This document shows positions 33,901-63,383 of a DNA stretch of 64,000 nt, in pieces. Each line of letters opens with the position of its first letter. Position 1 is the stretch's first letter. The position numbers were made by a program, and so were the translations under genes. The notes under the pieces were generated by a model that was not told where the DNA came from, did no database searches, and worked only from the letters and a program-made list of their open reading frames with translations. This stretch comes from a virus (taxonomy: Duplodnaviria > Heunggongvirae > Uroviricota > Caudoviricetes), in the IMG/VR virus record IMGVR_UViG_3300021255_002251. One strand, 5' to 3'.

Positions 33901-35372
33901 AGTATCTTCTTATTTTTATCAACCCGGATCCCGTCATCTATATCCATCTGTATCATTTTCATTGCTTTAGAAAGACTCCCCCAATGTTCTAAAGCCTTTG
34001 ATGCATCTATCTCTACTGTATCTTTTGGTTGCCTACCTTGTTTAGTTATAACGGCAGAGAAGGTCAGATATGCTTCATCGATCTTTCGCTCTAATGTTTT
34101 TTGTCTTGCTAATTTAGCATATCCTTCTGCAACCTCTTTTTTATTACTCCCATAAAGTCCCCATCCATAAACCTGATTCCCTTCCCCAGTTCCTATTGCC
34201 AATAAACTCGGCTTGTCATAGTTCGCCGCACTCCCCGTGAATATGTGCGAAATCCCCATTGGCTTTGGAGGCTGCACTTTCGCTTCTTCTTTTCCATTTT
34301 CTTGCTTCCCAGACACATCACCGCGAATGTCGTCACCATCGTCAAAACGGCGGGACAGAGGAACGACCTTACCGTCATCATCATACGTCACAGGGTCAGC
34401 AGACTTTATTTTACTCGGGTCCCAGAGTGCAATAGACTTACCCCCTTCATCTCTTACCATGAAACTATCATGTCCATTATCTATAGCTATTGCTTTACTA
34501 TATTGATCAGGGCCTAAATCATGCCCTTTATAATACCCTCCCCAAGCGCTCCAGTCTGGTACAGATTGGAATCTCCTTTGTGAGATTGTTGGAAGAGGCT
34601 GCTTTTTATATGTTCCATCGTTCTCATTCCACCCAGCACCATATGCTATAGACAATGCTTCATGATATGCATCTTGTTCTTCTTTCGGAAGCATCACCTC
34701 TTGTTGTCTAAGTTCTTCCATTTCGCTTTCAGTTTGAACGAAGTCTGGTAGATTATCATAAAATTCTCTTGCCTCCTTATCTGGAGAAACATTATGAATG
34801 CTTCTGCAATTCAAAAATACAGGAATTATATGAAACTTATTGACTTTGCTATCTTCAGGCCGAGGCTGCTCTCCATACCTTTCGTTTGCACCTGCTATAG
34901 CTCCATCTCTCGCACCTTCTTCTGTAGGAGCAAAAAATATACTACCTCTACTAGGGACAATGAATTTTTTTATGTCACTGCTAGTACCATGATAAAAAAT
35001 CTTTGGATTACCTTTTTCGTCTACAACTATGGTTTCAGGAAATGCCCTAGCCGCCACTTCCATAACCATTTTGGCGGCGGTCTCCATGTCCCCCTTCTCT
35101 ACTGCTTCAATGTAGGCGGCATCCTCTTCTGGGGTGACTATGGGTTTCTTCAATGGTTTTTCGGTAGCTATACTTTCTTTCGGGGCGGAATTAGGATTTT
35201 CAATATCCGCCTTGTCAGATTCAGTCTCTTTAGAAAGTCTCTCCCTAAACTTGCATGTGTCCGTTTCAGGATTGAATCCATGTGGGTGCTTTTCCTTGTC
35301 GTGTTCAGCCAAAGACTTTTCTTTAGGCATAGCATCAGAAACATATGTCTCGCCTAACAAGGCAGACACCAA
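30963..35372 (-). CDS. Polyvalent protein: ART-PolyVal-like x2, further ART-like module, MuF-C/PBECR-like domain, zincin-like HExxGH
   Basis: VDEKGNPKIFYHGT and VADDGLPKIVFHNT followed by (I/V)KSADPVTYDD.G.V.PLSRRFD; IGTGEGNQVYGWGLY; TPAVLRRLG..DNPVAVFDS..NTIASAYG..WIDEGYLRY; DTIGHELCGH. No ATG or clear RBS at the track start, so the true start is probably via frameshift from 35399..36079. Confidence 0.85.
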   Translation of the reverse strand: MVSALLGETYVSDAMPKEKSLAEHDKEKHPHGFNPETDTCKFRERLSKETESDKADIENPNSAPKESIATEKPLKKPIVTPEEDAAYIEAVEKGDMETAAKMVMEVAARAFPETIVVDEKGNPKIFYHGTSSDIKKFIVPSRGSIFFAPTEEGARDGAIAGANERYGEQPRPEDSKVNKFHIIPVFLNCRSIHNVSPDKEAREFYDNLPDFVQTESEMEELRQQEVMLPKEEQDAYHEALSIAYGAGWNENDGTYKKQPLPTISQRRFQSVPDWSAWGGYYKGHDLGPDQYSKAIAIDNGHDSFMVRDEGGKSIALWDPSKIKSADPVTYDDDGKVVPLSRRFDDGDDIRGDVSGKQENGKEEAKVQPPKPMGISHIFTGSAANYDKPSLLAIGTGEGNQVYGWGLYGSNKKEVAEGYAKLARQKTLERKIDEAYLTFSAVITKQGRQPKDTVEIDASKALEHWGSLSKAMKMIQMDIDDGIRVDKNKKILQELKDHGHEYDMPHEWIYEQTFFTNRPEGDESHLLSWYDPISEDNKKRAIEAIVNPFLEKLKGSGKYNEEKRQKLIDAWQQQIGERTGEELYRFMVSHFGTPKDASIALANSGIDGIKYPVDSYKKPIKDGNEVGWDYVSFRNDNIRIDKKYVDGQKMFDYQELMNKHHSDIDPMAILAYLTRLDSPEEMAAEFARIMESGKIEKDKTAQDELYEALVEDADTLKDQTLQEHDRRHHPGGYHEGDTCKFRNKLKTETETDKADELSKENSSRKNLAKIANKLKSFIKGVSIRFSDKPHEMDSSNTRKSIRQSEQDNWNRILDAFEHKTAGADATRHHTLLEHTPAVLRRLGVPDRPITIMGGTIHKMIGNIRNSLYEYHEIPISELRNLLLDLDNPVAVFDSKSDPNAIVILTNLLDKHGNAKSVVPLKLDREASGTARENTIASAYGQKPDNLQQWIDEGYLRYVSKKGLKKSAQRLQLPRDSILKTHGVLMEEDFSAEQLGEIIPDMPSGVKGGDEKKGESGEVISFRDNNGEVVGTYNRNTNEVVLYEGADADTIGHELCGHATWQYAEQMARNGNDSLLKKMNEVVDSPTAKPVWDEVKANYEGEDKEVQREEVWAHIIGHKTSKAIEEINKSRGGRRWYQRFWGVVKEAWRGLVSAAGLNNVDTSGIDQMSTDEFSDFMVKQMTSGKTLGSISKGEKREDGGERKSIVKKPIVSAAEDAAYMEAVKKGDMETAAKMVREVAGRAFPNTKVVADDGLPKIVFHNTDSSWTVPAVPWEGPIEWDGLPGLFFADREQPQYGKNKISCFVNLMNPLDMNDGGRKALHGRSSDRIDEFTKQYEDAIKTGENEFEFGDDGVLKITPKGMSLLKYDGYFGEHPEDEMGKVIEYAVMSARQVKSADPVTYDDNGNVIPLSRRFDSGDDIRGDVSGASSFIDMMKRLHPDVNPDELLSKLKSLGSREEMERAVAQILGAKST
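31095..35150 (-). repeat. Duplicated cassette flanks in the polyvalent gene (cassette 1 about 34305-35150; cassette 2 about 31095-31765)
   Basis: KKPIV...EDAAY.EAV.KGDMETAAKMV.EVA.RAFP and KSADPVTYDD.G.V.PLSRRFD.GDDIRGDVSG each occur twice around divergent cores. Confidence 0.9.
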
Positions 35373-37386: not shown

Positions 37387-37416
37387 ATTATACCACACCT
37401 CCTGTTAGGCTTTCAA
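37387..37416 (-). promoter_or_regulatory. Sigma70-type promoter for dnaN
   Basis: TTGAAA-N18-TATAAT with TGTGG extended -10. Confidence 0.8.
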
Positions 37417-39612: not shown

Positions 39613-39642
39613 ATTTTACCACACAATTATGGCGGCTTGCAA
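39613..39642 (-). promoter_or_regulatory. Sigma70-type promoter
   Basis: CCCCTC TTGCAA-N18-TAAAAT with TGTGG extended -10. Confidence 0.75.
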
Positions 39643-45957: not shown

Positions 45958-46674
45958 TTAATTCATTTTCATGTCGTATAGGCAGTTGTTCAGCACGGAA
46001 CCATATGAGAACTGCCTCTTTGCGCAATCCCAAGTGACAAGGCCATAGCCGTAATGTCCCCAATCAATCCCCCATGAATTGAATATCATCAGACCTTCCG
46101 TGGTGTACCCGCAACACAGGACGGCATGGCCTCCAATCAGAGTCTGGTCTCCCTGCCCGTAGATGGACGGATTGTTGACATTACACTTGTACCACTCCTT
46201 AGAAATGTTCATGCCGAGTAGGCAGCAACCGAACTTGTGTATGGCATACTTCACCTGATCGAGATTCCGAAGAACCTTGATTGAGCAAGTGCCACTGTCG
46301 AAGATTCCCTTGTCAAGAAGTGCCTGCATGACAGCCGTGAGAGAAGTACCGTCAACATCCGGGCTTCCGTCGATTGTCTTCGCATACTTGTAAAGCATTA
46401 TCGGGTCGATCTCTGGGGGAACATCCTTCTTCCTCCATAGGACGTTCTCTGCGAACTGGCTTGCTGCATACCCAGCACAGGCCGGAACAGAACCTTGGTC
46501 TTCTACATGAGTGCAGTAGTTAGGCAACAGCACCTCATCAGGTGCAACGAACTTTTCCGCCGAGAACTTAAGAATCGGAAGTAAATCAATCTTAGGCGGC
46601 TCCATCAAGAACCCAACGGGGTGTCTCTTCTCAAAGTCATCTGCCGCCTTGTCTCTAAACAACCAATCAAACAT
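45958..46674 (-). CDS. Papain-like (C1 family) cysteine peptidase
   Basis: VEDQGSVPACAGYA (Gln, Cys), GGHAVLCCGY (His), NSWGIDWG..GYG (Asn). Confidence 0.92.
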   Translation of the reverse strand: MFDWLFRDKAADDFEKRHPVGFLMEPPKIDLLPILKFSAEKFVAPDEVLLPNYCTHVEDQGSVPACAGYAASQFAENVLWRKKDVPPEIDPIMLYKYAKTIDGSPDVDGTSLTAVMQALLDKGIFDSGTCSIKVLRNLDQVKYAIHKFGCCLLGMNISKEWYKCNVNNPSIYGQGDQTLIGGHAVLCCGYTTEGLMIFNSWGIDWGHYGYGLVTWDCAKRQFSYGSVLNNCLYDMKMN

Positions 46675-47182: not shown

Positions 47183-47731
47183 TCAAACTATCTCTATCTG
47201 CTGATTACGGAGAACCGTGAGTGCCGCCTTATGCGACTCCTCATTTATGTCCCCGCACAAATCCTGCAGAAGCACAATCTTCTGGTTCGGCATGTAAGCA
47301 CGGAGCATTACCGCACAAGCCGTGACACAAATGCTAGTGCAATACCCACACATATCAACCTCTTCAATAGGGCCATACTTGTGTATCATTTCTCTAATGA
47401 ACTGCCCTACAAGCGAAGTCCCGAACGTGGGCTTGTCAACTATAGCAATATCTCCTCGATTGGCCAATGTCTGCAACTCCCCTACAAGTTCCCATCCCTT
47501 CGTCTGGTGAATGCAATGAGGAACTGGAAGTTTCTTCCCCTCCAATGTGTTTAGGTAGTTTTCGTGGTGTGTGTCGCGGGTTGCAATCACAACATCCCCA
47601 TTCGCAAGAAATTCTTTCACATTGGATATGATTAACTCCGTGTTGCTCTTTTTCGGATAGCCATAGGCAAGTGCTCCGCCTTTCACGAAATCATTCTGTA
47701 CATCCACTACCACAAGAACTTTTGTTGCCAT
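47183..47731 (-). CDS. pncA: Nicotinamidase (isochorismatase family)
   Basis: LVVVDVQNDFVKGGAL, TRDTH, PHCIHQTKGWEL, DKPTFG, GYCTSICV (Asp-Lys-Cys triad plus metal His residues). Start at ATG 47731. Confidence 0.9.
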   Translation of the reverse strand: MATKVLVVVDVQNDFVKGGALAYGYPKKSNTELIISNVKEFLANGDVVIATRDTHHENYLNTLEGKKLPVPHCIHQTKGWELVGELQTLANRGDIAIVDKPTFGTSLVGQFIREMIHKYGPIEEVDMCGYCTSICVTACAVMLRAYMPNQKIVLLQDLCGDINEESHKAALTVLRNQQIEIV

Positions 47732-47759
47732 TGTTTTTCCTTTCGCAGTTGACACCTCA

Positions 47760-47789
47760 ATTATACCATATCTACATTGTGGGAATCAA
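47760..47789 (-). promoter_or_regulatory. Sigma70-type promoter of the pncA unit
   Basis: CCCTC TTGATT-N18-TATAAT with TGG. Confidence 0.78.
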
Positions 47790-48646
47790 GAGGGTGTAAC
47801 ATCTTCGTTCGTTTTTTCTGAACTCTCTATGAACGGGGCTATTAGATTGTCGAAGTCTCTCACGAGTCGATGCATTGATTCTCTATCCCACTCCAAGCCT
47901 TTAATCCGATTCGCTATCCTTTCCTTCTCATTGAATTCTTCTTTCCTTTTTCTTGCACTTTCCTTGTATGACTCAGATTTGTATCCCAACCGATATGAAT
48001 CAATCCCAAGAATCTGCAATGCATCCAATGCATCTAACAATCTGCTCTTCTGGTCTTCATATAGTTTCTTGTAGTCCGTGCCATGCATTGCCTCCCACCT
48101 TCCGTCTGCCTTGCCCCTTTCGTACTCCGCCTGCAACTGAGCCTTCTTCTCGTCTTCTCCATCGAACTGCCCGTTGTGCTTCATGCAACGCATCAGTTCA
48201 AAAGCAAAGCCCCTGCTGATTGTACGAATGTGTTCATCGTGAAGAGCTATAGGCTTGCGGAAGACTTTCAACTGATTCTTTCTGTCTTCTGTCCCGGCAA
48301 TCGCTTTGTAGATTCCCCAGTTCTTAGGCACCAAAGCACAGTATTCGGCATCGAGAACATAGTCAGGAGCGACAATTGAGTAGTAGTCAATCTCAGAGAA
48401 GAAGATGTTGTGCTTGGACGGGTCGAACAGTTCGTGCCGCAAGTCGCTCTTACTAATCTTCACCTCAAATGCATGGATCCCAAAGCCCTCTCCTGCATAG
48501 CAGTTCGCCGCCACGAGATCAAGACGGCGCTTCCCTCCGCCAGTCGTGTTGCCGACCTCCGTTGCACAGAGCCATTGTCTCCCGTCTGAAAACCGTTTGT
48601 TCAAGAGGGCATAGATGTCCTCTGCCGTGAACTTTCCGTCTTTCAT
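47786..48646 (-). CDS. MmcB-like PD-(D/E)xK nuclease family protein
   Basis: TEV...RRLDLVA....IHAFEVKISKSDL..EL..P.K...FF..IDYYSIVAP...P.NWGI. Confidence 0.75.
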   Translation of the reverse strand: MKDGKFTAEDIYALLNKRFSDGRQWLCATEVGNTTGGGKRRLDLVAANCYAGEGFGIHAFEVKISKSDLRHELFDPSKHNIFFSEIDYYSIVAPDYVLDAEYCALVPKNWGIYKAIAGTEDRKNQLKVFRKPIALHDEHIRTISRGFAFELMRCMKHNGQFDGEDEKKAQLQAEYERGKADGRWEAMHGTDYKKLYEDQKSRLLDALDALQILGIDSYRLGYKSESYKESARKRKEEFNEKERIANRIKGLEWDRESMHRLVRDFDNLIAPFIESSEKTNEDVTPS

Positions 48647-48837
48647 GATTTTTCCTCGCATTTAAGATATTTGCAATTAGGACAAAGTACCTGCGGTGCT
48701 ATCCCTTCTCCGCAGTACCATTTTTCGCTTCTCAAAGCAACTCTCATGCCTTCTTCGTCTTTTATCATTCGTGGAATAGGAGAAGCAAAAGGCTGGTGGC
48801 AAAAATCGCATTCAGCAATAAAGACTTTCCGTACCAT
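48643..48837 (-). CDS. Small Cys-rich hypothetical protein
   Basis: CDFC...LCPNC; ATGA overlap with the next gene. Confidence 0.55.
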   Translation of the reverse strand: MVRKVFIAECDFCHQPFASPIPRMIKDEEGMRVALRSEKWYCGEGIAPQVLCPNCKYLKCEEKS

Positions 48838-48841
48838 ACTG

Positions 48842-49219
48842 CTATTCCTCTACCGCACTTTCATGATAATACTCAATTACCGAAGTGGAATACCCTCGCT
48901 TTAACACGTTGTCAACATATTGATTAACCGCATCCAGAATAGTTGTGCCGACATAAACCTCTTGCTCTTTCCCTGTCTTATAATTATGTCCACACACATT
49001 CCCCTTGGTCCATTGATAGGCAAATGTAAAGGTTTTATTATGCTTCAATCTATAGTCAAGAGACTTTAGTTCTTCATCCCTCCTCACTTTTAGTTCTTCA
49101 AGAAAACGAACAAGGTCTTGAAAATCATGCTCGTTGAACTTCCAATCCCCTTGTGATACTTTCTTCACTTTTTTTATCGCGCCTTCCAATGTCATTTTAG
49201 GTCTCCTTTTATCGGCCAC
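48842..49219 (-). CDS. Hypothetical protein
   Basis: ORF in the tightly packed minus-strand run. Confidence 0.55.
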   Translation of the reverse strand: MADKRRPKMTLEGAIKKVKKVSQGDWKFNEHDFQDLVRFLEELKVRRDEELKSLDYRLKHNKTFTFAYQWTKGNVCGHNYKTGKEQEVYVGTTILDAVNQYVDNVLKRGYSTSVIEYYHESAVEE

Positions 49220-49321
49220 TCAAATCCAAAGTTGCTCCGCTTAATCTTGCAGCACGGCTGTCAGCCCTTCCAGAATACAATGCCCTCAATAGACATCTAA
49301 GAGTGATTTCTGGAACTTTCT

Positions 49322-49600
49322 TCATTGATTCTTCCCCTTCCCGCACAGTGCTCTCCAAAACGCCTTCCATGCAATCACATACCAATATGCCGCTCTCTTA
49401 AAAAACGGTCTACCCCAACCGCTGACATCGCTCAAAAGATTACTAACTACACGTGGCACATCCTTACAGATGTCTGCACCATAAGAGATTGGCAAACCAA
49501 CGATTGTGACAATCAGAATAATAGGAAAGATGCTCAATGCCCATAGGCGCGGGCTTCCCTCATGAAATCTTTCCATGAACGATTTGCGGGGTTCAGTCAT
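49322..49600 (-). CDS. Hypothetical membrane protein
   Basis: Hydrophobic WALSIFPIILIVTIVGLP; ATGA coupling. Confidence 0.5.
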   Translation of the reverse strand: MTEPRKSFMERFHEGSPRLWALSIFPIILIVTIVGLPISYGADICKDVPRVVSNLLSDVSGWGRPFFKRAAYWYVIAWKAFWRALCGKGKNQ

Positions 49601-49803
49601 TGATTAATCCTCTCCGTAGCGTCGTGAATGCATTTCTCTAATTCCTTGTCGGCCTCTAATGTAGAGAGTGTTGCCCCCTTTATCAAACCCCAAGCCATTG
49701 GGTACTTCTCTTCATCCAAGTCGCATCCTGCTTCAACCAACAACTTGTATGCCGCATGGGTCTTCGTCCCTGCTTCCATCAGATGTCGTTCCTCCCAAGT
49801 CAT
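49597..49803 (-). CDS. Hypothetical protein
   Basis: ATGA coupling on both sides. Confidence 0.55.
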   Translation of the reverse strand: MTWEERHLMEAGTKTHAAYKLLVEAGCDLDEEKYPMAWGLIKGATLSTLEADKELEKCIHDATERINQ

Positions 49804-50162
49804 TTGCTTTGCCCTCCATTAGAATAATTTTGCATCCCAGCAGGATTCAAAAGTGCGAGTTCGGTCATAATCGCAACCGAAAGGCCATTGCCGTCTAGCC
49901 GTCCAGCCGCAAACTCACCATTGAGGAATCGCAAATGGTTGATTACCGTCTTGTACACCTCTATTACCTGTTTGTCGAACTGCCTATTCCACAATGCGAT
50001 AGCCTTCTCTGGATTGTATGATCCTGGTCCACTTGCATCACACTTGCAGCAACTCACAAAATATATGATTCTCCCCTTGGGATCTGTAAGCCAGTCCGCA
50101 ATCTTCATTATAGAACTTCCGCAAAAAGGGCAAGGAATTATCTTTGTACTCGTAATAGTCAT
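49800..50162 (-). CDS. Lar-family restriction alleviation-like protein
   Basis: IPCPFCGS....FVSCCKCDASGP....KAIALWNR. Confidence 0.8.
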   Translation of the reverse strand: MTITSTKIIPCPFCGSSIMKIADWLTDPKGRIIYFVSCCKCDASGPGSYNPEKAIALWNRQFDKQVIEVYKTVINHLRFLNGEFAAGRLDGNGLSVAIMTELALLNPAGMQNYSNGGQSK

Positions 50163-50339
50163 TTAGTGAAATTCCTCTTTTGTTTTCTGTCCAGCCTCTA
50201 TCGTATCCGCAAGTTCATTGAGTTCCTTTGCAACTCTTTCGTTGTCATGGCGAAAAAGTTTCTGCTGCGCTGCATAGTTCCTCAACCTCTCTACAACATC
50301 CGCGAAGGATAGCAATGGAATAGCATTCGGAAGTCTCAT
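50163..50339 (-). CDS. Hypothetical protein
   Basis: MRLPNAIP...; ATGA overlap with the upstream gene. Confidence 0.5.
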   Translation of the reverse strand: MRLPNAIPLLSFADVVERLRNYAAQQKLFRHDNERVAKELNELADTIEAGQKTKEEFH

Positions 50340-50740
50340 TTCGCCAACTTCTCCCAAACCATAGTCCTACTTCCGTCAATCTTGCTCTTGTAGTTGTCTT
50401 CTTCTCTCTCAAGCGGAGACCATGGGTGAGTTATGGAACACTTCTTTTCGTTGTCCCTAAACCAGACTTCTTCTGGACACTTTTCTAGCTTGTCATGGTT
50501 GAATTCCATCTCTTTGAGAATTTCATCTTTCCCCAAGTTGAAAATCGCCTTGCATCGCCCATACCATTCGGACTCTACATCAAGATAGAGATACCGTAGT
50601 ATCGTGTAACCAAGTTCTATCGTTACTCCCCCATATGAGAGTGTGGCATACTGCTCCCGCTCCTTCATTTGAACAAGATCACTGCCAACTTGTTCGGCCA
50701 ATGGCATAAACGGGCGTAGCCTTAGTTTTGATGTTTTCAT
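50336..50740 (-). CDS. Hypothetical protein
   Basis: ORF coupled by ATGA overlaps. Confidence 0.55.
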   Translation of the reverse strand: MKTSKLRLRPFMPLAEQVGSDLVQMKEREQYATLSYGGVTIELGYTILRYLYLDVESEWYGRCKAIFNLGKDEILKEMEFNHDKLEKCPEEVWFRDNEKKCSITHPWSPLEREEDNYKSKIDGSRTMVWEKLAK

Positions 50741-50928
50741 CTAAACCTTCCTCCAATAAGTTCCGCCAAAGCCACGAATGCCATCAACGGCCATGCCAGC
50801 GCAGTTTTCAATGCTTCTAGTGCCGTTTCTTTTATTCCGCTCTCATCTGGGTGGAGCCACTGAACAATAGACTCCATGAACAGAGCGATTACTCCGCCGC
50901 AGTATAGCACTAATATCCTCTCAATCAT
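50737..50928 (-). CDS. Small membrane protein
   Basis: Two hydrophobic stretches; AWPL motif. Confidence 0.5.
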   Translation of the reverse strand: MIERILVLYCGGVIALFMESIVQWLHPDESGIKETALEALKTALAWPLMAFVALAELIGGRFR

Positions 50929-51100
50929 CTTTCCCCTCCAGAATCCTTGCCATGGTTACTCCTATGCACAATATGCAAAGAATCGCTAAAATGGCACAAC
51001 ACCATCCGTCACCTTTCGCCAAGTGGACTCCTATTCCAATCCCTATGAAAGCGATTCCACATGGAGGCCATATTGCATTAAACATGTCTTGCAATTTCAT
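50921..51100 (-). CDS. Small membrane protein (59 aa)
   Basis: My translation: MKLQDMFNAIWPPCGIAFIGIGIGVH...ILAILCILCIGVTMARILEGKDD; TAATG-coupled. Confidence 0.5.
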   Translation of the reverse strand: MKLQDMFNAIWPPCGIAFIGIGIGVHLAKGDGWCCAILAILCILCIGVTMARILEGKDD

Positions 51101-51270
51101 TATTTGTCTCTATAAACAATACGGTCAAACACTACAATCGTCAAACAAACAATCACCAATTCTACTATCGCAAATGGAATAAAGGCGATAGTAAGAGCCA
51201 AAAGAAAAGCACAAGCAACAATTGAAAGCATAGCCTTGACTATGTTCTTGATATAGGTCACTTTAAGCAT
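51100..51270 (-). CDS. Small membrane protein
   Basis: MLKVTYIKNIVKAMLSIVACAFLLALTIAFIPF...; start moved to ATG 51270. Confidence 0.45.
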   Translation of the reverse strand: MLKVTYIKNIVKAMLSIVACAFLLALTIAFIPFAIVELVIVCLTIVVFDRIVYRDK

Positions 51271-51943
51271 CCTCATATGAAGGGAATTGGCAAGAAATCT
51301 TGGCTTTAGCGGAAGCAACCTCGTTCTGCACAGCAACAGTAAAATCAGAATCCAACATACGGTTTGCGACATGCTCCCCAACGTAGTACACGATATGGTT
51401 TATTGCCTTGCGCAAGTGTTCGTTGTCTGACTTCACTAGTTCAATGCTCGGGATTATAGCCTTTGAACATTCCTTGTCTGCCTCTTCAAGAAGCCATTCG
51501 CCAAAAGTCAACTTGGCCGTTCCATCTTCGTTCTGCCCGTCTTTCGTCCCTGTCCAGTTCCACCATAATGAATGGAGTTTGTACTTGTCTCCGCCTAAAA
51601 GGTCGCAGTTACGGGCGGGCTTAGAGAGTGCAGAATTGACTTCATCTATAATGGTTTCAGCGTCAACACAATGTGCAACTCCTCTCTCTCCAGGAGCTCC
51701 GGCTATTGGGTAATCGTACAAGTCGTAATTTGACTTTGCTTCATCGCGGAGGTTTTCAAGTGCTTCGCGCAATGCCGCATTGTTCATGGCAGGAATGCTC
51801 TTAAGTTTCTTCAGTTCCTTTAGCCAGTCTGCCAACTGTTTGTGCTGCCGTCCGCATGGCGTGTCGTTAACCATCTCTTCCGCATGGGCAATAGCCTCGT
51901 CAAGAGTGAGAGGCTTTGTCTTGCATTTAGTTTCTTCCGCCAT
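51263..51943 (-). CDS. Hypothetical phage protein
   Basis: LTLDEAIAHAEE...C..QHKQLADWLKELK module, common in phage early regions. Confidence 0.65.
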   Translation of the reverse strand: MAEETKCKTKPLTLDEAIAHAEEMVNDTPCGRQHKQLADWLKELKKLKSIPAMNNAALREALENLRDEAKSNYDLYDYPIAGAPGERGVAHCVDAETIIDEVNSALSKPARNCDLLGGDKYKLHSLWWNWTGTKDGQNEDGTAKLTFGEWLLEEADKECSKAIIPSIELVKSDNEHLRKAINHIVYYVGEHVANRMLDSDFTVAVQNEVASAKAKISCQFPSYEDA

Positions 51944-51955
51944 TTCAAAGCTCCA

Positions 51956-52387
51956 TTATCTGTCAAATACACACTTGTCAAATTGCGGTGGATTCGTGGG
52001 ATACACTATCCCATGGCACTCACCATTCCCTCGAAGGAACTCACATCCCTTCATCTCGCTCTTGCATCTGGGGCAAGAGCGCATCGAGGAATTGAATTCA
52101 GACGAAGGTTTATTGTTGTCTTCAACCCTTCCAACATCTTCGTTGTCTGGAGCCACGGAACCTACACCATCGCTTTCAATCTTCTTTGGAGGAAGTGGTT
52201 CATTCTTGAAAACAGCCGTCAGAATAGAGGCCACATCTGCAACACTTACAATACGAGGAAGATGCTCTAATTCTTTTCCGCAATTCCTGCAGAACTTGTC
52301 ATCGTCATCGACATGCTTCTTGCAGTTCCCACAGACAAAGCAGAAATACATTCCGCTTCCGAGAACGTTTATTTCCTTGATTTCCAT
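51956..52387 (-). CDS. Zinc-ribbon protein
   Basis: CFVCGNC...DKFCRNCG and CPRC. Confidence 0.65.
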   Translation of the reverse strand: MEIKEINVLGSGMYFCFVCGNCKKHVDDDDKFCRNCGKELEHLPRIVSVADVASILTAVFKNEPLPPKKIESDGVGSVAPDNEDVGRVEDNNKPSSEFNSSMRSCPRCKSEMKGCEFLRGNGECHGIVYPTNPPQFDKCVFDR

Positions 52388-53025
52388 TAGGCATCACCCT
52401 TCCTCAAATCCTCGATGAATTCACGGCAGGATTCCTCATCCCAGTCAACGATCTTCCCATCTTCAATCGTAATAATAATATAGTCACCATACCCCCGATC
52501 GTCAATGGCAAGGAAGTCAGGAACATAATCCCTATATTTTATATCCTCATACTTGATTCCGCAGCAGTCGCACACCTTGTAGTGAACTTTTGCCTTGATT
52601 CCCTTTGGCCAGCCGATGATTTCTCCGGTTTCAATGTCAATATCAAGTTTCCAGCACCATCCGTCCTGTGTTCCTTCCTGCTTTACCAAAAAAGGCATCA
52701 TGGGATTATCGTTATCTTCACGCTCTCCATTGATGTATGCATCCTCTGGATAGCGTGGCTCCGCCTCGATATGGATAATGTCCTTCAACGGGTTGCCGTT
52801 CGCATCCTTTCCGTGCCAGTTGTCGCAGACATCCGTATCGTTCACCTCGAAGAATGCATCCTCACCATGCTTTGCGGACTTGTCCTCATTCTCTGGACAA
52901 GAGCAGAACGGCGAGTAGTTCGCTCCAAAGTCGTCTTCTTGGTAATCGAAGTGGCAGCAGTTTGCGCAGCACTTAGCTTGCCGTAGATTACACTTCTTCT
53001 TTATCGCTTCTAATTGTTCTTTCAT
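52387..53025 (-). CDS. Hypothetical protein
   Basis: Cys-rich N-terminus; WKLDIDIETGEIIGWP..VHYKVCD...YVPDFL..GYGDYI domain seen in phage proteins. Confidence 0.65.
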   Translation of the reverse strand: MKEQLEAIKKKCNLRQAKCCANCCHFDYQEDDFGANYSPFCSCPENEDKSAKHGEDAFFEVNDTDVCDNWHGKDANGNPLKDIIHIEAEPRYPEDAYINGEREDNDNPMMPFLVKQEGTQDGWCWKLDIDIETGEIIGWPKGIKAKVHYKVCDCCGIKYEDIKYRDYVPDFLAIDDRGYGDYIIITIEDGKIVDWDEESCREFIEDLRKGDA

Positions 53026-53040
53026 TGTTTTTTCCTTTCT

Positions 53041-53832
53041 TCACTTTCTAACATCAGGCAAGTTGTTGTATCGCACAAAGTTCCCAAGGTCGTCGAAGTT
53101 CGGACCGGGAATCCGAACAATATCTGTCTTGAACTTGTTCTTAAGATACAGTTCATTGATGTGAGCCTTGAACTCATCGCTACCGACATCCTCACGAATG
53201 TACCTGTCCAAGGCTTCATAGGTGAATCCCAACTTGTCCTCATCTGACAACGGCTGCAACCCATCTATCGGAGTCTTGTGTATGAGGTGAAGCGGCAAGC
53301 CCATCCAATCACCTAACTTCCTAATCTCCGTCACAGTCAGTCCTTGTATCGGGGCATATGAACCCATATTGTCACCCCCGAGGGTTGCATACCCCACTGT
53401 GTCTTCACTTAGGTTACAAGTGTTCGCAACCATCCCTCCTACAGTCTGTGCAACCGCATACAAGGTACTCATCCGCAGCCGAGCGGGAAGATTCGTCTTT
53501 GTATCGTAGGACGTTCTATCAAAAGAAAACTCCACTTGATTTACAATTGATTCAAATGCTTCCTCAATGTTAATCTCAACATATCTAATCCCTAAGAGTT
53601 CACACACACTAATAGAATCTCCAATGTCTTTCTGGGCTCCATTCGGCAAAAGAACACCATAGACTTTCTCTTTCCCAAATGCCCGTGTCGCAAGTGCCGC
53701 AACTACGGTGGAATCTTTCCCTCCGCTAATGCCTACAACCCACTTGGTTGCGCCAACAGATTTGGCCCAATCCTGCCAGTGATTTCTTATCCGCAGATAA
53801 GCGGAACGGGGATTGAAATCGTACTTATCCAT
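53041..53832 (-). CDS. nadE: NH3-dependent NAD+ synthetase
   Basis: VVGISGGKDSTVVA, NLPARLRMSTLY, NTCNLSE..VGYATLGGD, K.P.DGL...SDEDKLGFTY..LD; no glutaminase domain. Start at ATG 53832. Confidence 0.95.
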   Translation of the reverse strand: MDKYDFNPRSAYLRIRNHWQDWAKSVGATKWVVGISGGKDSTVVAALATRAFGKEKVYGVLLPNGAQKDIGDSISVCELLGIRYVEINIEEAFESIVNQVEFSFDRTSYDTKTNLPARLRMSTLYAVAQTVGGMVANTCNLSEDTVGYATLGGDNMGSYAPIQGLTVTEIRKLGDWMGLPLHLIHKTPIDGLQPLSDEDKLGFTYEALDRYIREDVGSDEFKAHINELYLKNKFKTDIVRIPGPNFDDLGNFVRYNNLPDVRK

Positions 53833-53876
53833 AACTTTTGCCTCTCTATGCTTTCGGCAATCTCGAGAATTCCTCA

Positions 53877-54059
53877 TTAATCATGCTGGATGCTTTTTCT
53901 TTCTTGCCATACAAATTTGTCACAGGTTTTTGCATATTCTGGAGTACAGATAAAGGGAAGTTCTGAAAAACCTCCTTTGGGGATAATGCCAGTTGTTTTA
54001 GGGTACAAACATATGTTCTTTCTCCAAGATTTAGTTGATGAAAATTTGCACCGTCTCAT
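53877..54059 (-). CDS. Small Cys-containing hypothetical protein
   Basis: Short ORF in the minus-strand run. Confidence 0.45.
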   Translation of the reverse strand: MRRCKFSSTKSWRKNICLYPKTTGIIPKGGFSELPFICTPEYAKTCDKFVWQERKSIQHD

Positions 54060-54070
54060 TTTGATACCTC

Positions 54071-54352
54071 TTAGTTAAACTCAAAATGTACTTTCACTTT
54101 TTCTGCGCATTCCGCTTTCTTTAAAAGAACGGAATCGCTCTTCTCTGCGAACATCTTCATCATCTGCTCAAAGCACTCCTTGCACAGATGATGATGTGTT
54201 ATACCGACATTAAAAATTACCGTTGACATTTCTTTGTGGCAAACCTCACATCGCCCTTCATCTATTGTTGGCGCAATGATTTTGATAGAAAAGTCATTTT
54301 GCTGATGACATTTCACTCCCTCGGGAAAGGGTGTTGTTGGGAAATCCTTCAT
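54071..54352 (-). CDS. Zinc-finger hypothetical protein
   Basis: CEVC...HLCKEC. Confidence 0.55.
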   Translation of the reverse strand: MKDFPTTPFPEGVKCHQQNDFSIKIIAPTIDEGRCEVCHKEMSTVIFNVGITHHHLCKECFEQMMKMFAEKSDSVLLKKAECAEKVKVHFEFN

Positions 54353-54374
54353 ACTTATAAGTCTACTCCGATTC

Positions 54375-54785
54375 TCACTTGAAAACCATCTGGCTTCCTT
54401 CTGTCGCTTTGTGTGCCGTTTCTAGGGTCTGAACGAACTCATTAGTCTTCCTTACCGAATCTGTCTCCTTCGGCTTATACTCTTTGCAGTCATTACCATC
54501 ATGGAATGGGCAAATAAAAGGACTTAATCCAGACATGATCTGCCTGCTTCCAAACTCTTTTACCATGTCATTATTACAATGACACCCCAAAAAATACTTG
54601 CACTCCCTTATGTCCTTTGACTCAGGCTTTGGCTTCTCTAATGGCTCCATACTCGAAGACACATAAAGCGAATCCCCATCCCCATCATACTGGCAGATGA
54701 CTATACCGAACTTGTCGCACTCGTCTAGTCTCTTCTTAAGTTCCTCAATTCTACAAGGAAGTGTTATCAATAGTTTATTTGCCAT
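54375..54785 (-). CDS. Hypothetical protein
   Basis: MANKLL...; Cys-rich middle. Confidence 0.5.
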   Translation of the reverse strand: MANKLLITLPCRIEELKKRLDECDKFGIVICQYDGDGDSLYVSSSMEPLEKPKPESKDIRECKYFLGCHCNNDMVKEFGSRQIMSGLSPFICPFHDGNDCKEYKPKETDSVRKTNEFVQTLETAHKATEGSQMVFK

Positions 54786-55206
54786 CTTTCTTCTCCTCAT
54801 TCTCTTCTTCAAATGGCGGCAATGTGACGGATTTCACATCGAACCTTTTCCGCTTGCCCTCCTTGTATTCCTGCATCCTGATCATCGCTTTCCGTGCAGC
54901 CAATCCGATTGGAACTACAACATTATTCCAATATAGAACGGCATCCTTGATAGTATAATGCCTCGGAATCTCTTTCATCCCGTCTTTGCAATGGAAGTGA
55001 CACTTACCGTCAATGCTCCATGCACCATGGTCATCCAAATCGCCACATTCAACATCCCAGAACTCTGGTCTATTCTCTCCGCAATAGTGGATAAGCGCAG
55101 CCTTATGTCCGCATAGAGGACACGGCTTCATTTGTCCAACCCAAAACTCATTGTACTTCCTGTTGGACTCGTCAAGCCACTTCGTGATCCGCGACAACAA
55201 TCCCAT
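54775..55206 (-). CDS. Second Lar-like zinc-ribbon protein
   Basis: MKPCPLCGHKA....WDVECG....DAVLYWN. Confidence 0.6.
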   Translation of the reverse strand: MGLLSRITKWLDESNRKYNEFWVGQMKPCPLCGHKAALIHYCGENRPEFWDVECGDLDDHGAWSIDGKCHFHCKDGMKEIPRHYTIKDAVLYWNNVVVPIGLAARKAMIRMQEYKEGKRKRFDVKSVTLPPFEEENEEKKDGK

Positions 55207-55437
55207 TATGCACCCCTCCGCTTCTTCTCGATCCGACGCTTGATTTCAGTGATCCCCATTAGTGCTTCTCCTTCGGCGGTTGAAACAGATTCAACGGACT
55301 TACTTCCCAGATTTTCTCCTTTGCATTAAACCAAAATATATCAGTCGCAGCCACTCCATTAAGGTGTTGCGAATGAACTTGATGCTTAAGCACGAAGACA
55401 TCGCATCCTTCTATTATATTGTACAGCCATCCCATCT

Positions 55438-55686
55438 CTACTTCGCCTTTCTTTCATTACATTTTGCCATAATGAAGTCAAACATTTCCTTTTCAGTAAC
55501 CTCTCCTACCATAGGATACTTGTCTGGACTATCGGTAAAAGAACTGTTGTAATAGGACACCTGTCTTTGAAAGTATATCCCATCCTTGCATAAAGCAAAT
55601 CCAAATCCATTCCGCCTATCCCTGGTTTTATGTGTCTCTATGAACCAAGTTGGATTTCCAGCATATAGATTTCTATAGATTTTCAT
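55438..55686 (-). CDS. Hypothetical protein
   Basis: ORF with AGGAG RBS directly downstream of nadD. Confidence 0.55.
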   Translation of the reverse strand: MKIYRNLYAGNPTWFIETHKTRDRRNGFGFALCKDGIYFQRQVSYYNSSFTDSPDKYPMVGEVTEKEMFDFIMAKCNERKAK

Positions 55687-55699
55687 GTGTATCTCCTTT

Positions 55700-56359
55700 T
55701 TAGCACCACCCTAGACTTGACAACGTTTCTTCCCCTGCATCTAGCTTCTTGATGTCATTTATGTAATGTGGCCAAGTGCGATTTCTCATCGCATCCCGAA
55801 TCTTGCTTGCAGAAACAGATGAAAACGCTGCCGGAATCCGAATCTCATCATATTGCATGTCGTCCCGTAATATCCGTTTGTCATTTCGCCCCTGAACAAC
55901 CACTAGATTACAGACCTTTGTAATCTCTTTGTTCATATACCACTGGTCTATATTCTCAAATGAGTCAGTCCCTATGCAGACAAAAGGTCTACTATTAAAG
56001 TCAAGACCATGTCGAACATTGAAATCTATAAGGGTGTGCATGAATCTTCTCCCACCAACCAGTGTTTCATATGCCTTGCCTGTCATAAAACGGCAACAAT
56101 CCCTATATGACAGTTCGCTTCTATCCAGAAACACCCGTCGCACATAGAAAAGAGGCAAGGTGTCGATGACTCGCTCTATTACCTCCAGTTTGATATGGTC
56201 GGGAAGAGGCTCTGTCTTCCCTTCTCTATGGTAGGTTACGATTGTAGGAATGATGTAGAGTTCATCAAGTCTCATCAAGTCTATAAATGTCTTGACAATC
56301 TCACGATGTGCTACCGTGAAAGGGGAAAAAGTCCCACCGAAGATTCCTATTCTTTTCAT
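55700..56359 (-). CDS. nadD: Nicotinate-nucleotide adenylyltransferase
   Basis: RIGIFGGTFSPFTVAH (T/HxGH variant), CIGTDSFENIDQWY, LVVVQGR, SVSASKIRD. Confidence 0.9.
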   Translation of the reverse strand: MKRIGIFGGTFSPFTVAHREIVKTFIDLMRLDELYIIPTIVTYHREGKTEPLPDHIKLEVIERVIDTLPLFYVRRVFLDRSELSYRDCCRFMTGKAYETLVGGRRFMHTLIDFNVRHGLDFNSRPFVCIGTDSFENIDQWYMNKEITKVCNLVVVQGRNDKRILRDDMQYDEIRIPAAFSSVSASKIRDAMRNRTWPHYINDIKKLDAGEETLSSLGWC

Positions 56360-56394
56360 GCCACCTCCTTATAGTGTAGTACATCCATCCTATG

Positions 56395-57627
56395 TCACAC
56401 TACCTGTTCGTGCTTAAGGCGCCAGTCTATGCATCGGCGGAGATAGTCAACGTACGACGGGTCTACAGACATCGTTTTCCCAGCAACATCAGAAATCTTG
56501 GCAACTGGAGACCCATTAGCCTCAATCACCTTCATCACGATATTGAGCGGTTCTACACCGGTATCGTTTGCAATATAGGTTCCAATGCCGAAAGCAACCC
56601 TGCTCTTCCCATTGAAGTGTTCCTTGATTTTGGTTGCCCTCTCAAAGTCTAGGCTATCAGAGAAGAGCAATGTCTTCGTCATCGGGTCAATCCCCAACTT
56701 CTTGTAGTGGGCAATAATCTTCTCACCCCAAGCGATAGGATCGGCGGAATCGTGACGGACGCCGCTAAACAAGGTGGCATACGTCTTGTCAAAGTCCCGA
56801 AGGAAGCAGTCTGTCGTGATCGTGTCAGTGAGGGCAATTCCGTTGTCCGTCTTGTACTCACGAACCCAATACTTCATCATGTAGTGATTGGAGTATGCGG
56901 GATTGTGTTCATGATGAGCTTGGCCCACAACCTGAATAAACTCATGCGCCATGGTTCCAACAGGCTTGATTCCGTACTTCTTCGCCAGATAGACGTTTGA
57001 CGTACCCACAAAGGTATTCTCAGATGAGAACCCATGCGCAAACTCACCGACAATCCAATCCTGCATCTCAGCAGAGTAGCGACGACGCATCCCGAACTCG
57101 GAGAAGAAACCAAGACGATATTTGCCGCAATTCAACTCGTCTTTCTTTTCCAAGGCACGCTTCTTGAACTCTTCGTTCAATGCACCGATACCATACCGGA
57201 AAGCAAAGTACACCTCATTCACGATAGCAAGAATCGGAATCTCATACATTGAGGTGTCTAGCCATTCGCCGCTCGCCGTTATTACCATGCCGCAATGATC
57301 TATGGGCGGGTCGGGGTATTCGTAAATCTGAATCTGCTCTTGGCGAGGATACCACCTGCGAAGGTGCGAAATGTAGTCTCCGCTTAGCCACGGAATGTTG
57401 TTCTTGAGCCAAGCAAGTTCCTCCTCCGTGAAGCGAAGTGTGCAAAAGTGCTCTACCTGCTCACGAATCTCCTGCACCATTTCTGGAGTAAATATTACTC
57501 CCTTGTTGCGGCACTTGAAAGCCCAAGTTGTCATGTCCTTGTTGAACTGGTGGTAGATACAGGCCCCCATCGAAAATTTATACAAATCAGTCTCGAGCAG
57601 GCTATTGATTATTGGTTTCAGTTTCAT
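56395..57627 (-). CDS. pncB: Nicotinate phosphoribosyltransferase
   Basis: IINSLLETDLYKFSM, SEFGMRRRYS, GTSNV..A...GIKPVGTMAHE, ALTDT, GVRHDSADP, LLFSDSLD, AFGIGT, LNIVMK, PVAKISD..GK. Confidence 0.96.
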   Translation of the reverse strand: MKLKPIINSLLETDLYKFSMGACIYHQFNKDMTTWAFKCRNKGVIFTPEMVQEIREQVEHFCTLRFTEEELAWLKNNIPWLSGDYISHLRRWYPRQEQIQIYEYPDPPIDHCGMVITASGEWLDTSMYEIPILAIVNEVYFAFRYGIGALNEEFKKRALEKKDELNCGKYRLGFFSEFGMRRRYSAEMQDWIVGEFAHGFSSENTFVGTSNVYLAKKYGIKPVGTMAHEFIQVVGQAHHEHNPAYSNHYMMKYWVREYKTDNGIALTDTITTDCFLRDFDKTYATLFSGVRHDSADPIAWGEKIIAHYKKLGIDPMTKTLLFSDSLDFERATKIKEHFNGKSRVAFGIGTYIANDTGVEPLNIVMKVIEANGSPVAKISDVAGKTMSVDPSYVDYLRRCIDWRLKHEQVV

Positions 57628-58732: not shown

Positions 58733-58762
58733 ATTGTACCACACCTTGCGGACGGCTTTCAA
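58733..58762 (-). promoter_or_regulatory. Sigma70-type promoter of the unit containing pncB-nadD-nadE
   Basis: CCCTC TTGAAA-N18-TACAAT with TGTGG. Confidence 0.78.
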
Positions 58763-60404: not shown

Positions 60405-60433
60405 AGTATACCACAACCCCGATTGGGTTGCAA
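60405..60433 (-). promoter_or_regulatory. Sigma70-type promoter
   Basis: CCCCC TTGCAA-N17-TATACT with TGTGG. Confidence 0.78.
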
Positions 60434-60453: not shown

Positions 60454-60485
60454 AAAAAAAGGTTGCCGCCTAATGCAGCAACCTT
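60454..60485 (-). terminator. Intrinsic terminator
   Basis: Minus strand aaggttgctgc-attag-gcggcaacctt followed by ttttt. Confidence 0.8.
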
Positions 60486-60509
60486 CCGATCGAAATCAAC
60501 CTATCCATC

Positions 60510-62013: not shown

Positions 62014-62841
62014 CTAGCCATCTTCCTCTCTATCTTCAAGCCACCTGTTGTCTAAAACTACAAACATCACGACCACAACTATCATGAAAATCGTCCATAT
62101 TGTCCAGAACAAGCCAACCGCCATAGAGCTCGTGGACATCTTGTAGAGGTCTTCAATCGTAGCACCCTTCCATATCGTCGGACAATCATTTATCGTCCCG
62201 CTCTTGAGCATGGCATAGATGCTCCCACGAAATTCCTTCGGCATGTAACGAAATACATCCCTCGTGTGCCATCCCGTGCCTCTTACATGGCGGCTAGATG
62301 AAACCATATCGTAGGAGAATGTCTCATAAGGATAGGCATTGCCGCAGAACGAAACCTCCTTAGAGTGCTTCTTGTCGGACCTTACTACATCCCAAGTCCA
62401 ATATGTCTCTATTCTAGTCATAGTGTGAGGGCGCCCCTTGCTATCGTGGACAGTATATGTAACCGTCCTTGTGTGCATAGTATATTTTTCCTTGTCCCTC
62501 CTTATCCAAAGATGCTCTCCGTCAAGCCCTTCCCATGTCACCGTGTCAATCGCCTTGAAATCCCCTTCAACGAAAGCATTTCCCACATCGGTGTCGCAAG
62601 CCTGCTTTAGTTCGGCTCCGCAATCCCTTATCTGTATCGCCTGCCGATACACAAGATTTCGTTCGTCCACGTGCTTCTCGATTGCGTCTGCAATAAGAAA
62701 CCCTATGGAGAATAGGACGCCTACAATCAGAACGGAGAAGATTACTTCTCTAGGGGTGACCTTGACGTCAGGCTCACCCCCAAAGGAATAACCATGCCCG
62801 TGACTCCTCCACGACAGGTCCGATTGACGATAGATTCCCAT
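62014..62841 (-). CDS. Membrane protein with N- and C-terminal TM segments (LemA partner)
   Basis: TM VIFSVLIVGVLFSIGFLIA and TM VGLFWTIWTIFMIVVVVMFVV; coupled to lemA by a TGATG overlap. Confidence 0.7.
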   Translation of the reverse strand: MGIYRQSDLSWRSHGHGYSFGGEPDVKVTPREVIFSVLIVGVLFSIGFLIADAIEKHVDERNLVYRQAIQIRDCGAELKQACDTDVGNAFVEGDFKAIDTVTWEGLDGEHLWIRRDKEKYTMHTRTVTYTVHDSKGRPHTMTRIETYWTWDVVRSDKKHSKEVSFCGNAYPYETFSYDMVSSSRHVRGTGWHTRDVFRYMPKEFRGSIYAMLKSGTINDCPTIWKGATIEDLYKMSTSSMAVGLFWTIWTIFMIVVVVMFVVLDNRWLEDREEDG

Positions 62842-63383
62842 CAGAAGAGCTTCATCGGCTTCGTGTCTTTTACTGATTTGTCGGCAACGTACATTTCGTA
62901 TTGCTGCACCTCATAACCAACCCATCCGAGAAAGATTGAGGTCGGGAACTTCCTGCAGTGATAGCGGTAATCCCTTACCGATTCGTTGTAAGCCTTCTTG
63001 TGCTGCGCAAGATGGTTCTCTGTCAATGCAATCTCCGTCATCAGTTGCTGGTAGTTCTTCTGCGATTGAAGTTCAGGATACCGTTCTGCAACCGCATTGA
63101 TAGATGCCATCGTTGCCTTGAAAGCGGAAGCAGACATATTCTTGCCGCGCATCCGAATGGTATCCGTTAGAGTCTTGTACTCATGAGCATCGTACTGCTT
63201 CACGCACTCGGCGATTTCCGTGAGCTTGTTGAAGCGGTTTGACAATTGAACATCCACCCCGGATTTCGCCGTGTTGACGGTCTCCTCCAAGGATATTGCT
63301 GAGTTCTTGGAAGAGAATACCATGCAGGTGGTAATAAGCCCGATGCCGACAAGCGCGGCAAGAACGATAAGAAACATCTTCAT
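62841..63383 (-). CDS. lemA: LemA family protein
   Basis: N-terminal TM; LEE.V..A...VDVQL..R...L..IAE.VK.Y..HE; AVAERYPELQS..NY..LM.EI..TEN.LA...AYN..V..Y.....FP. Confidence 0.92.
   Translation of the reverse strand: MKMFLIVLAALVGIGLITTCMVFSSKNSAISLEETVNTAKSGVDVQLSNRFNKLTEIAECVKQYDAHEYKTLTDTIRMRGKNMSASAFKATMASINAVAERYPELQSQKNYQQLMTEIALTENHLAQHKKAYNESVRDYRYHCRKFPTSIFLGWVGYEVQQYEMYVADKSVKDTKPMKLF

Follow-up and report, generated by a model that had tools for sequence, protein, structure and literature searches.

A dispersed gene set for a predicted deamidating NAD+ salvage pathway in a jumbo phage genome

Can a tailed phage rebuild nicotinamide adenine dinucleotide (NAD+) out of nicotinamide by the route that bacteria use, and what would the phage gain from it? 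The question is raised by a locus in a 64,000-nucleotide stretch of DNA (the window), which comprises bases 56161-120160 of the 223,335-bp IMG/VR virus record IMGVR_UViG_3300021255_002251. The window contains genes for a baseplate wedge protein, a prohead protease, a sliding clamp and a DnaB-type helicase, and the genome is therefore that of a tailed jumbo phage. Nearly all genes are carried by the minus strand. Four of them, located in an accessory region adjoining the replication module of this ~223-kb genome, belong to the families of nicotinamidase (pncA), nicotinate phosphoribosyltransferase (pncB), NadD-type adenylyltransferase (nadD-like) and NAD synthetase (nadE). An earlier note on this DNA, made from its letters alone, had picked out these four open reading frames (ORFs); their positions, on the minus strand, are confirmed, and their families are supported by hidden Markov models (HMMs), by the catalytic residues and, for the NadD-like and PncA-like proteins, by AlphaFold2 (AF2) models. 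Together, the four genes probably represent a phage version of the usual deamidating route of NAD+ salvage in bacteria, likely sustaining the NAD+ pool.

The pncB gene (56395..57627, minus strand) encodes a protein of 410 amino acids in which both PncB domains, PF17767 and PF04095, are found. The protein passes two NCBIfam models, NF003704 with 472.5 bits (cut-off 379) and TIGR01514 with 409.6 bits (cut-off 269.55). Its best match in the PDB is the Pseudomonas aeruginosa PncB (1yir), to which it aligns from end to end with 306 bits. The GTMAHE motif at residues 224-229 is aligned to the same motif in 1yir; the histidine of the GT(M/S)AH motif is the ATP-coupled phospho-histidine. No other gene of the NAPRTase family (PF04095) is present in the genome, which thus lacks a Nampt.

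The pncA gene (47183..47755, minus strand) is annotated from a GTG codon as an ORF of 190 amino acids. Translation more probably begins with the ATG codon at 47731, which gives a protein of 182 amino acids and matches the length of the homologues. In a profile search, the product is assigned to the isochorismatase family (PF00857, 77 bits), and its best PDB sequence matches are the PncA proteins of Bacillus subtilis (5zn8/6a8l) and Pyrococcus horikoshii (1ilw). The Asp-Lys-Cys triad D18/K108/C143 aligns to that of the solved PncA proteins. The metal site D61/H63/H80 has the D-x-H...H form typical of nicotinamidases and corresponds to D52/H54/H71 of the P. horikoshii enzyme. Both sites are invariant among 20 homologues. 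The AF2 model has a predicted local distance difference test score (pLDDT) of 94.2, and the top 20 structures returned by Foldseek are nicotinamidases only, with template modelling (TM) scores of ~0.8 to the enzymes of B. subtilis, P. horikoshii and Streptococcus pneumoniae.

The nadD-like gene (55700..56359, minus strand) encodes a divergent member of the NadD family of nucleotide adenylyltransferases, 219 amino acids long, which matches PF01467 with 42.7 bits. All 15 of its 15 PDB sequence matches are NadD proteins. An AF2 model built from an alignment of 18 sequences has a pLDDT of 89.8, and the best 50 PDB structures found with it by Foldseek are all bacterial NadD. Residues G8, T10, P13, F14, H18 and R19, as well as S183, A184 and R188, are invariant in the clade, and the second motif, of the ISSTxxR type, is kept as V182-S-A-S-K-I-R188 (SASKIR). 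This form of NadD is found only within this phage clade.

The nadE gene (53041..53877, minus strand) encodes a single-domain, NH3-type NAD synthetase. As its relatives do, it probably begins with the ATG codon at 53832 (MDKYDF...). The protein scores 160 bits against PF02540 and passes TIGR00552 with 164 bits (cut-off 63.65), and its P-loop of the SGGxDS type (SGGKDS) is located at residue 51. No glutaminase (nitrilase) domain was found by profile search in this protein of 263-278 amino acids, in which the synthetase domain alone was matched. The best PDB match is P. horikoshii 2e18 (129 bits), followed by Francisella tularensis 3fiu (98 bits).

The genes are dispersed, as the earlier note had described. 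The gap between pncB and nadD is 35 bp, nadE lies ~1.8-1.9 kb further, and pncA is set apart, 5.3 kb beyond nadE. The pncB and nadD genes end a tight co-directional run, orf216-orf72-orf99-pncB-nadD, in which -28 to 35 bp separate the genes. All four genes, with their order kept, are present in three related contigs of 30-274 kb. PncB of the window is 92% identical to that of the IMG/VR contig G002 (30 kb), 78% identical to that of the IMG/VR contig G001 (96 kb) and 64% identical to that of a 274-kb contig, the PncA of which is 86% identical to the window's. Against the closest relatives, the ratio of nonsynonymous to synonymous substitution rates (dN/dS) is 0.04-0.18 across the three genes pncA, nadE and pncB: 0.04-0.08 for pncB, 0.08-0.14 for pncA and 0.14-0.18 for nadE.

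Two 'alleles' of NadD, ~34% identical to each other, swap between phages with flanks that are ~90% identical (55700-56359 of the window versus L002:10988-11704 and L011:1941-2645). G002 and the 274-kb contig carry nadD genes that are only 34% identical to that of the window, whereas their flanks are ~90% identical; the type of the window is shared with the more distant G001, at 65% identity. The region is mosaic, and the pattern looks like a cassette-like replacement of one pathway gene.

Expression of pncA, pncB and nadD from phage promoters is suggested by a motif that was found by aligning the regions upstream of pncA in four relatives. The element TTGA..CC-N12-TGnTATAAT is kept in all four, and its flanks have diverged. 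The promoter-like class defined from it, TTGAAAsCC-N12-TGnTATAAT, has a sigma-70-like look; its relaxed form is TTG(A/C)AA(G/C)CC-N11-12-TG(G/T)TA(T/C)A(A/C)T. The genome holds seven matches to the strict motif and 19 to the relaxed one, all on the coding strand and mostly intergenic. In the window, four matches with three or fewer mismatches were found versus 0.08 expected, and sites of the class are located at 37387-37416, 39613-39642, 47760-47789, 58733-58762 and 60405-60433. The element TTGATTCCC-N12-TGGTATAAT (47760..47789, minus strand) is located in a gap of 54 bp that lies upstream of pncA, at a distance of 5 bp from the ORF as annotated. The element TTGAAAGCC-N12-TGGTACAAT (58733..58762, minus strand), with one mismatch to the motif, lies 1.1 kb upstream of pncB and heads the run that ends with pncB and nadD. 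When the region was scanned with a generic sigma-70 pattern, the count did not rise above chance (23 sites versus 18.3 +/- 4.6), and the promoter claim therefore rests on the specific conserved motif. Phage promoters are supported on this basis for three of the four genes, pncA, pncB and nadD. A terminator, made up of a strong hairpin and seven T residues (60461-60492), directly precedes one copy of the motif.

A sole clue to the host comes from the related 274-kb contig, which was binned within a 'Prevotella sp.' metagenome-assembled genome. A sigma-70-like promoter class is not expected for Bacteroidota and is odd beside this label.

The family models and the catalytic residues, together with the structure models, the synteny and the signs of purifying selection, make the enzymatic reading, from nicotinamide through nicotinate, nicotinate mononucleotide (NaMN) and nicotinate adenine dinucleotide (NaAD) to NAD+, well supported. 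In its favour, too, a scan of the genome found no other route, with neither a Nampt nor a second nicotinamide mononucleotide adenylyltransferase, a Prs or a PnuC. PncA would hydrolyse nicotinamide to nicotinate, which PncB would join to phosphoribosyl pyrophosphate (PRPP) supplied by the host, giving NaMN. The NadD-family enzyme would adenylylate NaMN to NaAD, and the single-domain NadE would convert NaAD and ammonia to NAD+. The analysis shows family membership, intact catalytic residues, fold, conservation, purifying selection and the promoter motif; what the enzymes do, which substrates they prefer, when the genes are expressed and what purpose they serve is inferred. The route is standard bacterial chemistry, that of PncA and the Preiss-Handler pathway, and not new chemistry: the four enzyme families and the logic of their succession are those of bacteria, and catalytic residues are retained in each, with a variant first motif in the NadD-like protein. 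Compared with the bacterial pathway, the phage genes are scattered rather than operonic and are accompanied by promoters of a phage type, the NadD is a clade-specific variant, and the structure of an NrtR/NiaR-regulated operon is not evident.

Several observations weigh against this reading. The PncA-like protein misses the NCBIfam equivalog model for PncA, NF008623 (29.5 bits versus a cut-off of 174); the model is derived from the longer enterobacterial type of PncA. The best NCBIfam model for the NadD-like protein is TIGR00482, yet its score of 74.2 is below the cut-off of 112.45. The first motif of this protein, GGTFSPFTVAH, has T-V-A-H in place of the canonical H-x-G-H, with T15 and A17 nearly invariant and H18 invariant in the clade. 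Upstream of nadE, a search for the defined promoter class found no copy and just a hairpin, and the idea that these genes are under phage promoters is supported for pncA and for the pncB-nadD unit only. Finally, the route depends on PRPP of the host and on several ATP per NAD+, and because of this it may be slow compared with a fast NADase.

What would such a pathway be for? Its likely job would be to hold up the NAD+ pool of the infected cell. The NADase defences of bacteria yield nicotinamide and ADP-ribose (ADPR), and rebuilding of NAD+ by phages as a counter-measure is established for three pathways, NARP1-3. The deamidating route would offset the cleavage of NAD+ by host NADases, the source of the released nicotinamide, and would also open the use of environmental niacin. 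It is possible, though it falls short of being probable, that the route is a genuine counter-defence and amounts to a fourth pathway of NAD+ reconstitution, with which large phages would survive Thoeris, DSR or SIR2-type NADases through recycling of the released nicotinamide via nicotinate.

The explanation that competes best with counter-defence is a general supply of NAD+ for replication and for the phage's own NAD+ consumers, with or without a NADase defence in the host; the chemistry would be the same and the selective reason another. A candidate consumer is encoded in the window: a MuF-type polyvalent protein of 1469 amino acids (30963-35372, minus strand) contains a MuF_C domain along with two stretches of the ART-PolyVal type (66 bits against a cut-off of 31.2). 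The protein, which is probably packaged in the head and injected, may be an ADP-ribosyltransferase that consumes NAD+, and its presence makes general supply a live rival. NAD-consuming enzymes have also been reported in the 'NAD-jumbo phages' (Li et al. 2024, PMC11662467), and the route can begin at nicotinate, which makes it independent of the products of NADases. On the other hand, a scan of the genome found no NAD-dependent ligase, Sir2 or macro domain, the transferase activity of the polyvalent protein is itself putative, and the substrate of PncA is the direct product of NADases, which fits recycling after NAD+ cleavage. General supply is a tenable account that we would hold at somewhat less than an even chance. 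It and counter-defence are not mutually exclusive.

A second alternative keeps the genes together and changes the order of the steps. NadE would act as an NMN synthetase, converting NaMN to nicotinamide mononucleotide (NMN) in the manner of the F. tularensis NadE*, and the NadD-like enzyme would then adenylylate NMN. NadE is of the short, archaeal-like type, and the F. tularensis structure is the second among its PDB relatives; the NadD-like protein is very divergent, has variant motifs and is restricted to this phage clade. However, NadE is closest to P. horikoshii 2e18, which was deposited as an NH3-dependent NAD+ synthetase, and the adenylyltransferase is of the NadD type by its fold, according to the 50 best Foldseek matches. 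The Francisella route employs an NMN adenylyltransferase (NMNAT) of the NadM type. This order of steps is unlikely.

It is highly improbable that the genes form no single pathway and are independently acquired morons, with the isochorismatase-family protein acting on a substrate other than nicotinamide: their spread over 10.4 kb amid unrelated small ORFs, the sub-threshold score of the PncA-like protein together with its weak NCBIfam match to biuret hydrolase, and the mosaic pieces (NadD at 34% between close relatives; PncB at 64% versus PncA at 86% in the 274-kb contig) would fit such an origin, but the four genes occur together in every relative examined and form compact operons in other phages, the nicotinamidase-specific metal site is invariant, and the structural neighbours are nicotinamidases.

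How does the deamidating salvage route compare with those already described in phages? NARP1 consists of Adps and Namat, and NARP2 of Nampt/NadV and NMNAT, as in the Vibrio phage KVP40 (Osterman et al. 2024, bioRxiv 10.1101/2024.02.11.579819); the same paper makes no mention of PncA, PncB or NadE. NARP3 consists of PnuC and NadR (2026, PMC13464706). Like NARP2, the route encoded in the window would lead from nicotinamide and PRPP to NAD+. NARP2, however, takes two amidated steps via NMN, whereas the four steps proposed here pass through nicotinate, NaMN and NaAD and do not involve a Nampt. NARP1 and NARP3 also restore NAD+ in phages, and the present route uses neither ADP-ribose nor nicotinamide riboside. 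A scan of the genome found no Prs/Adps-like gene (PF13793), which together with the lack of a Namat/Nampt-like gene sets the phage apart from NARP1, and no PnuC (PF04973), which, with the sole PF01467 gene being NadD-like, sets it apart from NARP3. Because the defining genes of all three pathways (Prs/Adps, Nampt, PnuC) are lacking, the route differs from each of them. The distinction from NARP1 and NARP2 drawn in the earlier note is thus upheld, while the third place that the note had assigned to the route is held by NARP3.

The combination of genes is not new either. Li et al. (Microbiome 2024, PMC11662467) described 174 'NAD-jumbo phages' that encode a salvage or a Preiss-Handler pathway in full, including Kuafu_71, which carries a pncB-nadD-nadE cluster. 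They proposed a role in counter-defence and mentioned phage pncA in passing, in work that was sequence-based and without experiments. The idea of an NAD counter-defence in jumbo phages is echoed in a paper on the Xanthomonas phage X1 (2026, PMC13384950). The phage studied here falls within the class as defined, with a genome larger than 200 kb and every step of one NAD+ pathway: its Preiss-Handler pathway is complete and is accompanied by PncA. Like the published NAD-jumbo phages, it is a metagenomic jumbo phage of more than 200 kb with a complete set of genes from nicotinate to NAD+, a putative NAD consumer and the same speculative role, counter-defence or NAD supply. It differs from them in the added nicotinamidase, with which the route could start from nicotinamide, and in the dispersed rather than clustered genes. 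The novelty that the earlier note had seen is therefore lost at the level of genomes, where complete Preiss-Handler sets and phage pncA were already in print; a literature search found no experimental study of the deamidating NAD+ route in phages. With its scattered genes, this phage adds one more case to a kind of gene set already described from sequence.

The earlier note had proposed a survey of phages for the co-occurrence of the four genes. A PncA of this type was found in 187 IMG/VR contigs, and the loci of 80 of these 187 were examined with flanks of +/-10 kb. PncA, PncB, NadD and NadE occur together in four of the 80 loci: the close relative G002 (L014) and three compact four-gene operons, on contigs of 291 kb (L017), 265 kb (L018) and 108 kb (L065), which are unrelated to the window phage. 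PncA, PncB and NadE are found in three further loci. The commonest setting of this type of PncA is another one. In 47 of the 80 loci, it is accompanied by a Prs-like protein, a Nampt-like protein and NadE, without NadD; these are L019:9986-13614, L016, L020, L008 (Phass-1, OQ749652, record 96860-101298) and another 43 IMG/VR loci. The Prs-like and Nampt/Namat-like set amounts to a NARP1-like pair flanked by enzymes of deamidation and amidation, which suggests a nicotinate version of NARP1.

Among GenBank phages, a megablast search with the 10.7-kb region gave no match, and no record containing the whole set was retrieved by tblastn with the four proteins as queries. A phage in culture, Sinorhizobium phage Phosso (PV764938), has the genes NadE-PncB-Nudix-adenylyltransferase-isochorismatase within 6 kb. 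Phosso, L017, L018 and L065 are large phages that share the four families with the phage of the window, but their genes form compact clusters of 4-6 kb and the identity is 31-63% or less. In Phosso, a Nudix gene is found inside the cluster, whereas in the window phage a Nudix gene is located ~8 kb upstream of pncB. A PncB match labelled 'Acinetobacter phage MD-2021a' (L096, CAKLQH020000008.1) was rejected as a fragment of a bacterial chromosome, with serB, dtd, psd, phoR and phoB around pncB.

The Nudix protein of the window phage is 221 amino acids long (G000:C1:121596-122261, minus strand) and is encoded 1.4-2.1 kb past the end of the window. It most resembles, though weakly, NrtR and the ADP-ribose pyrophosphatase half of NadM-Nudix. 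The gene lies behind a promoter of the same class as that of pncA (motif at G000:122297-122326) and is conserved in G001. The protein could feed ribose-5-phosphate toward PRPP or could regulate the NAD module.

Another neighbour, ORF212 (52387..53025, minus strand), starts 15 bp downstream of nadE and adjoins nadE in every close relative. It consists of a Cys-rich N-terminus and an unnamed C-terminal domain of ~125 amino acids with the motif RYxEDAxING...HYKVCD...GYGDYI, which is also present at L015:724-1959 and L097:4200-5180. In the relative G001 (P0269), the domain and NadE form an in-frame fusion, and in the unrelated contig L097 the domain is fused to a PncA-like isochorismatase that adjoins NadE. 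It has 532 cluster representatives in the representative library and is also found by itself, in settings that lack NAD genes. No recurrent Pfam family and no PDB relative were found for it, and an Atlas search for the identity of ORF212 gave sub-threshold leads only, including a Tad8 row at 0.82. The domain is not present in 78 other phage NAD modules examined, and ORF212 is therefore not claimed for the pathway. It may or may not be functionally tied to nadE.

The ORFs that flank pncA have no Pfam or NCBIfam matches to kinases, phosphatases or vWA domains, and a cassette of these is therefore absent here. A papain-like protein (Peptidase_C1, weak match) is encoded between pncA and the DnaB helicase gene (45958-46674, minus strand) and is kept in the relatives. 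A LemA-family protein is encoded upstream of the pncB unit (62841-63383, minus strand).

NAD+ is a central battleground on which phages meet bacterial immunity. For jumbo phages, the conceptual advance toward phage-encoded NAD+ synthesis is already in print, and three other phage pathways that rebuild NAD+ have been demonstrated, so that the value of this locus is that of a well-characterised candidate and not of a discovery. If the pathway works as proposed, the growing evidence that large phages provide for their own supply of NAD+ would gain one more case, for which a promoter map, conserved synteny and relatives are at hand.

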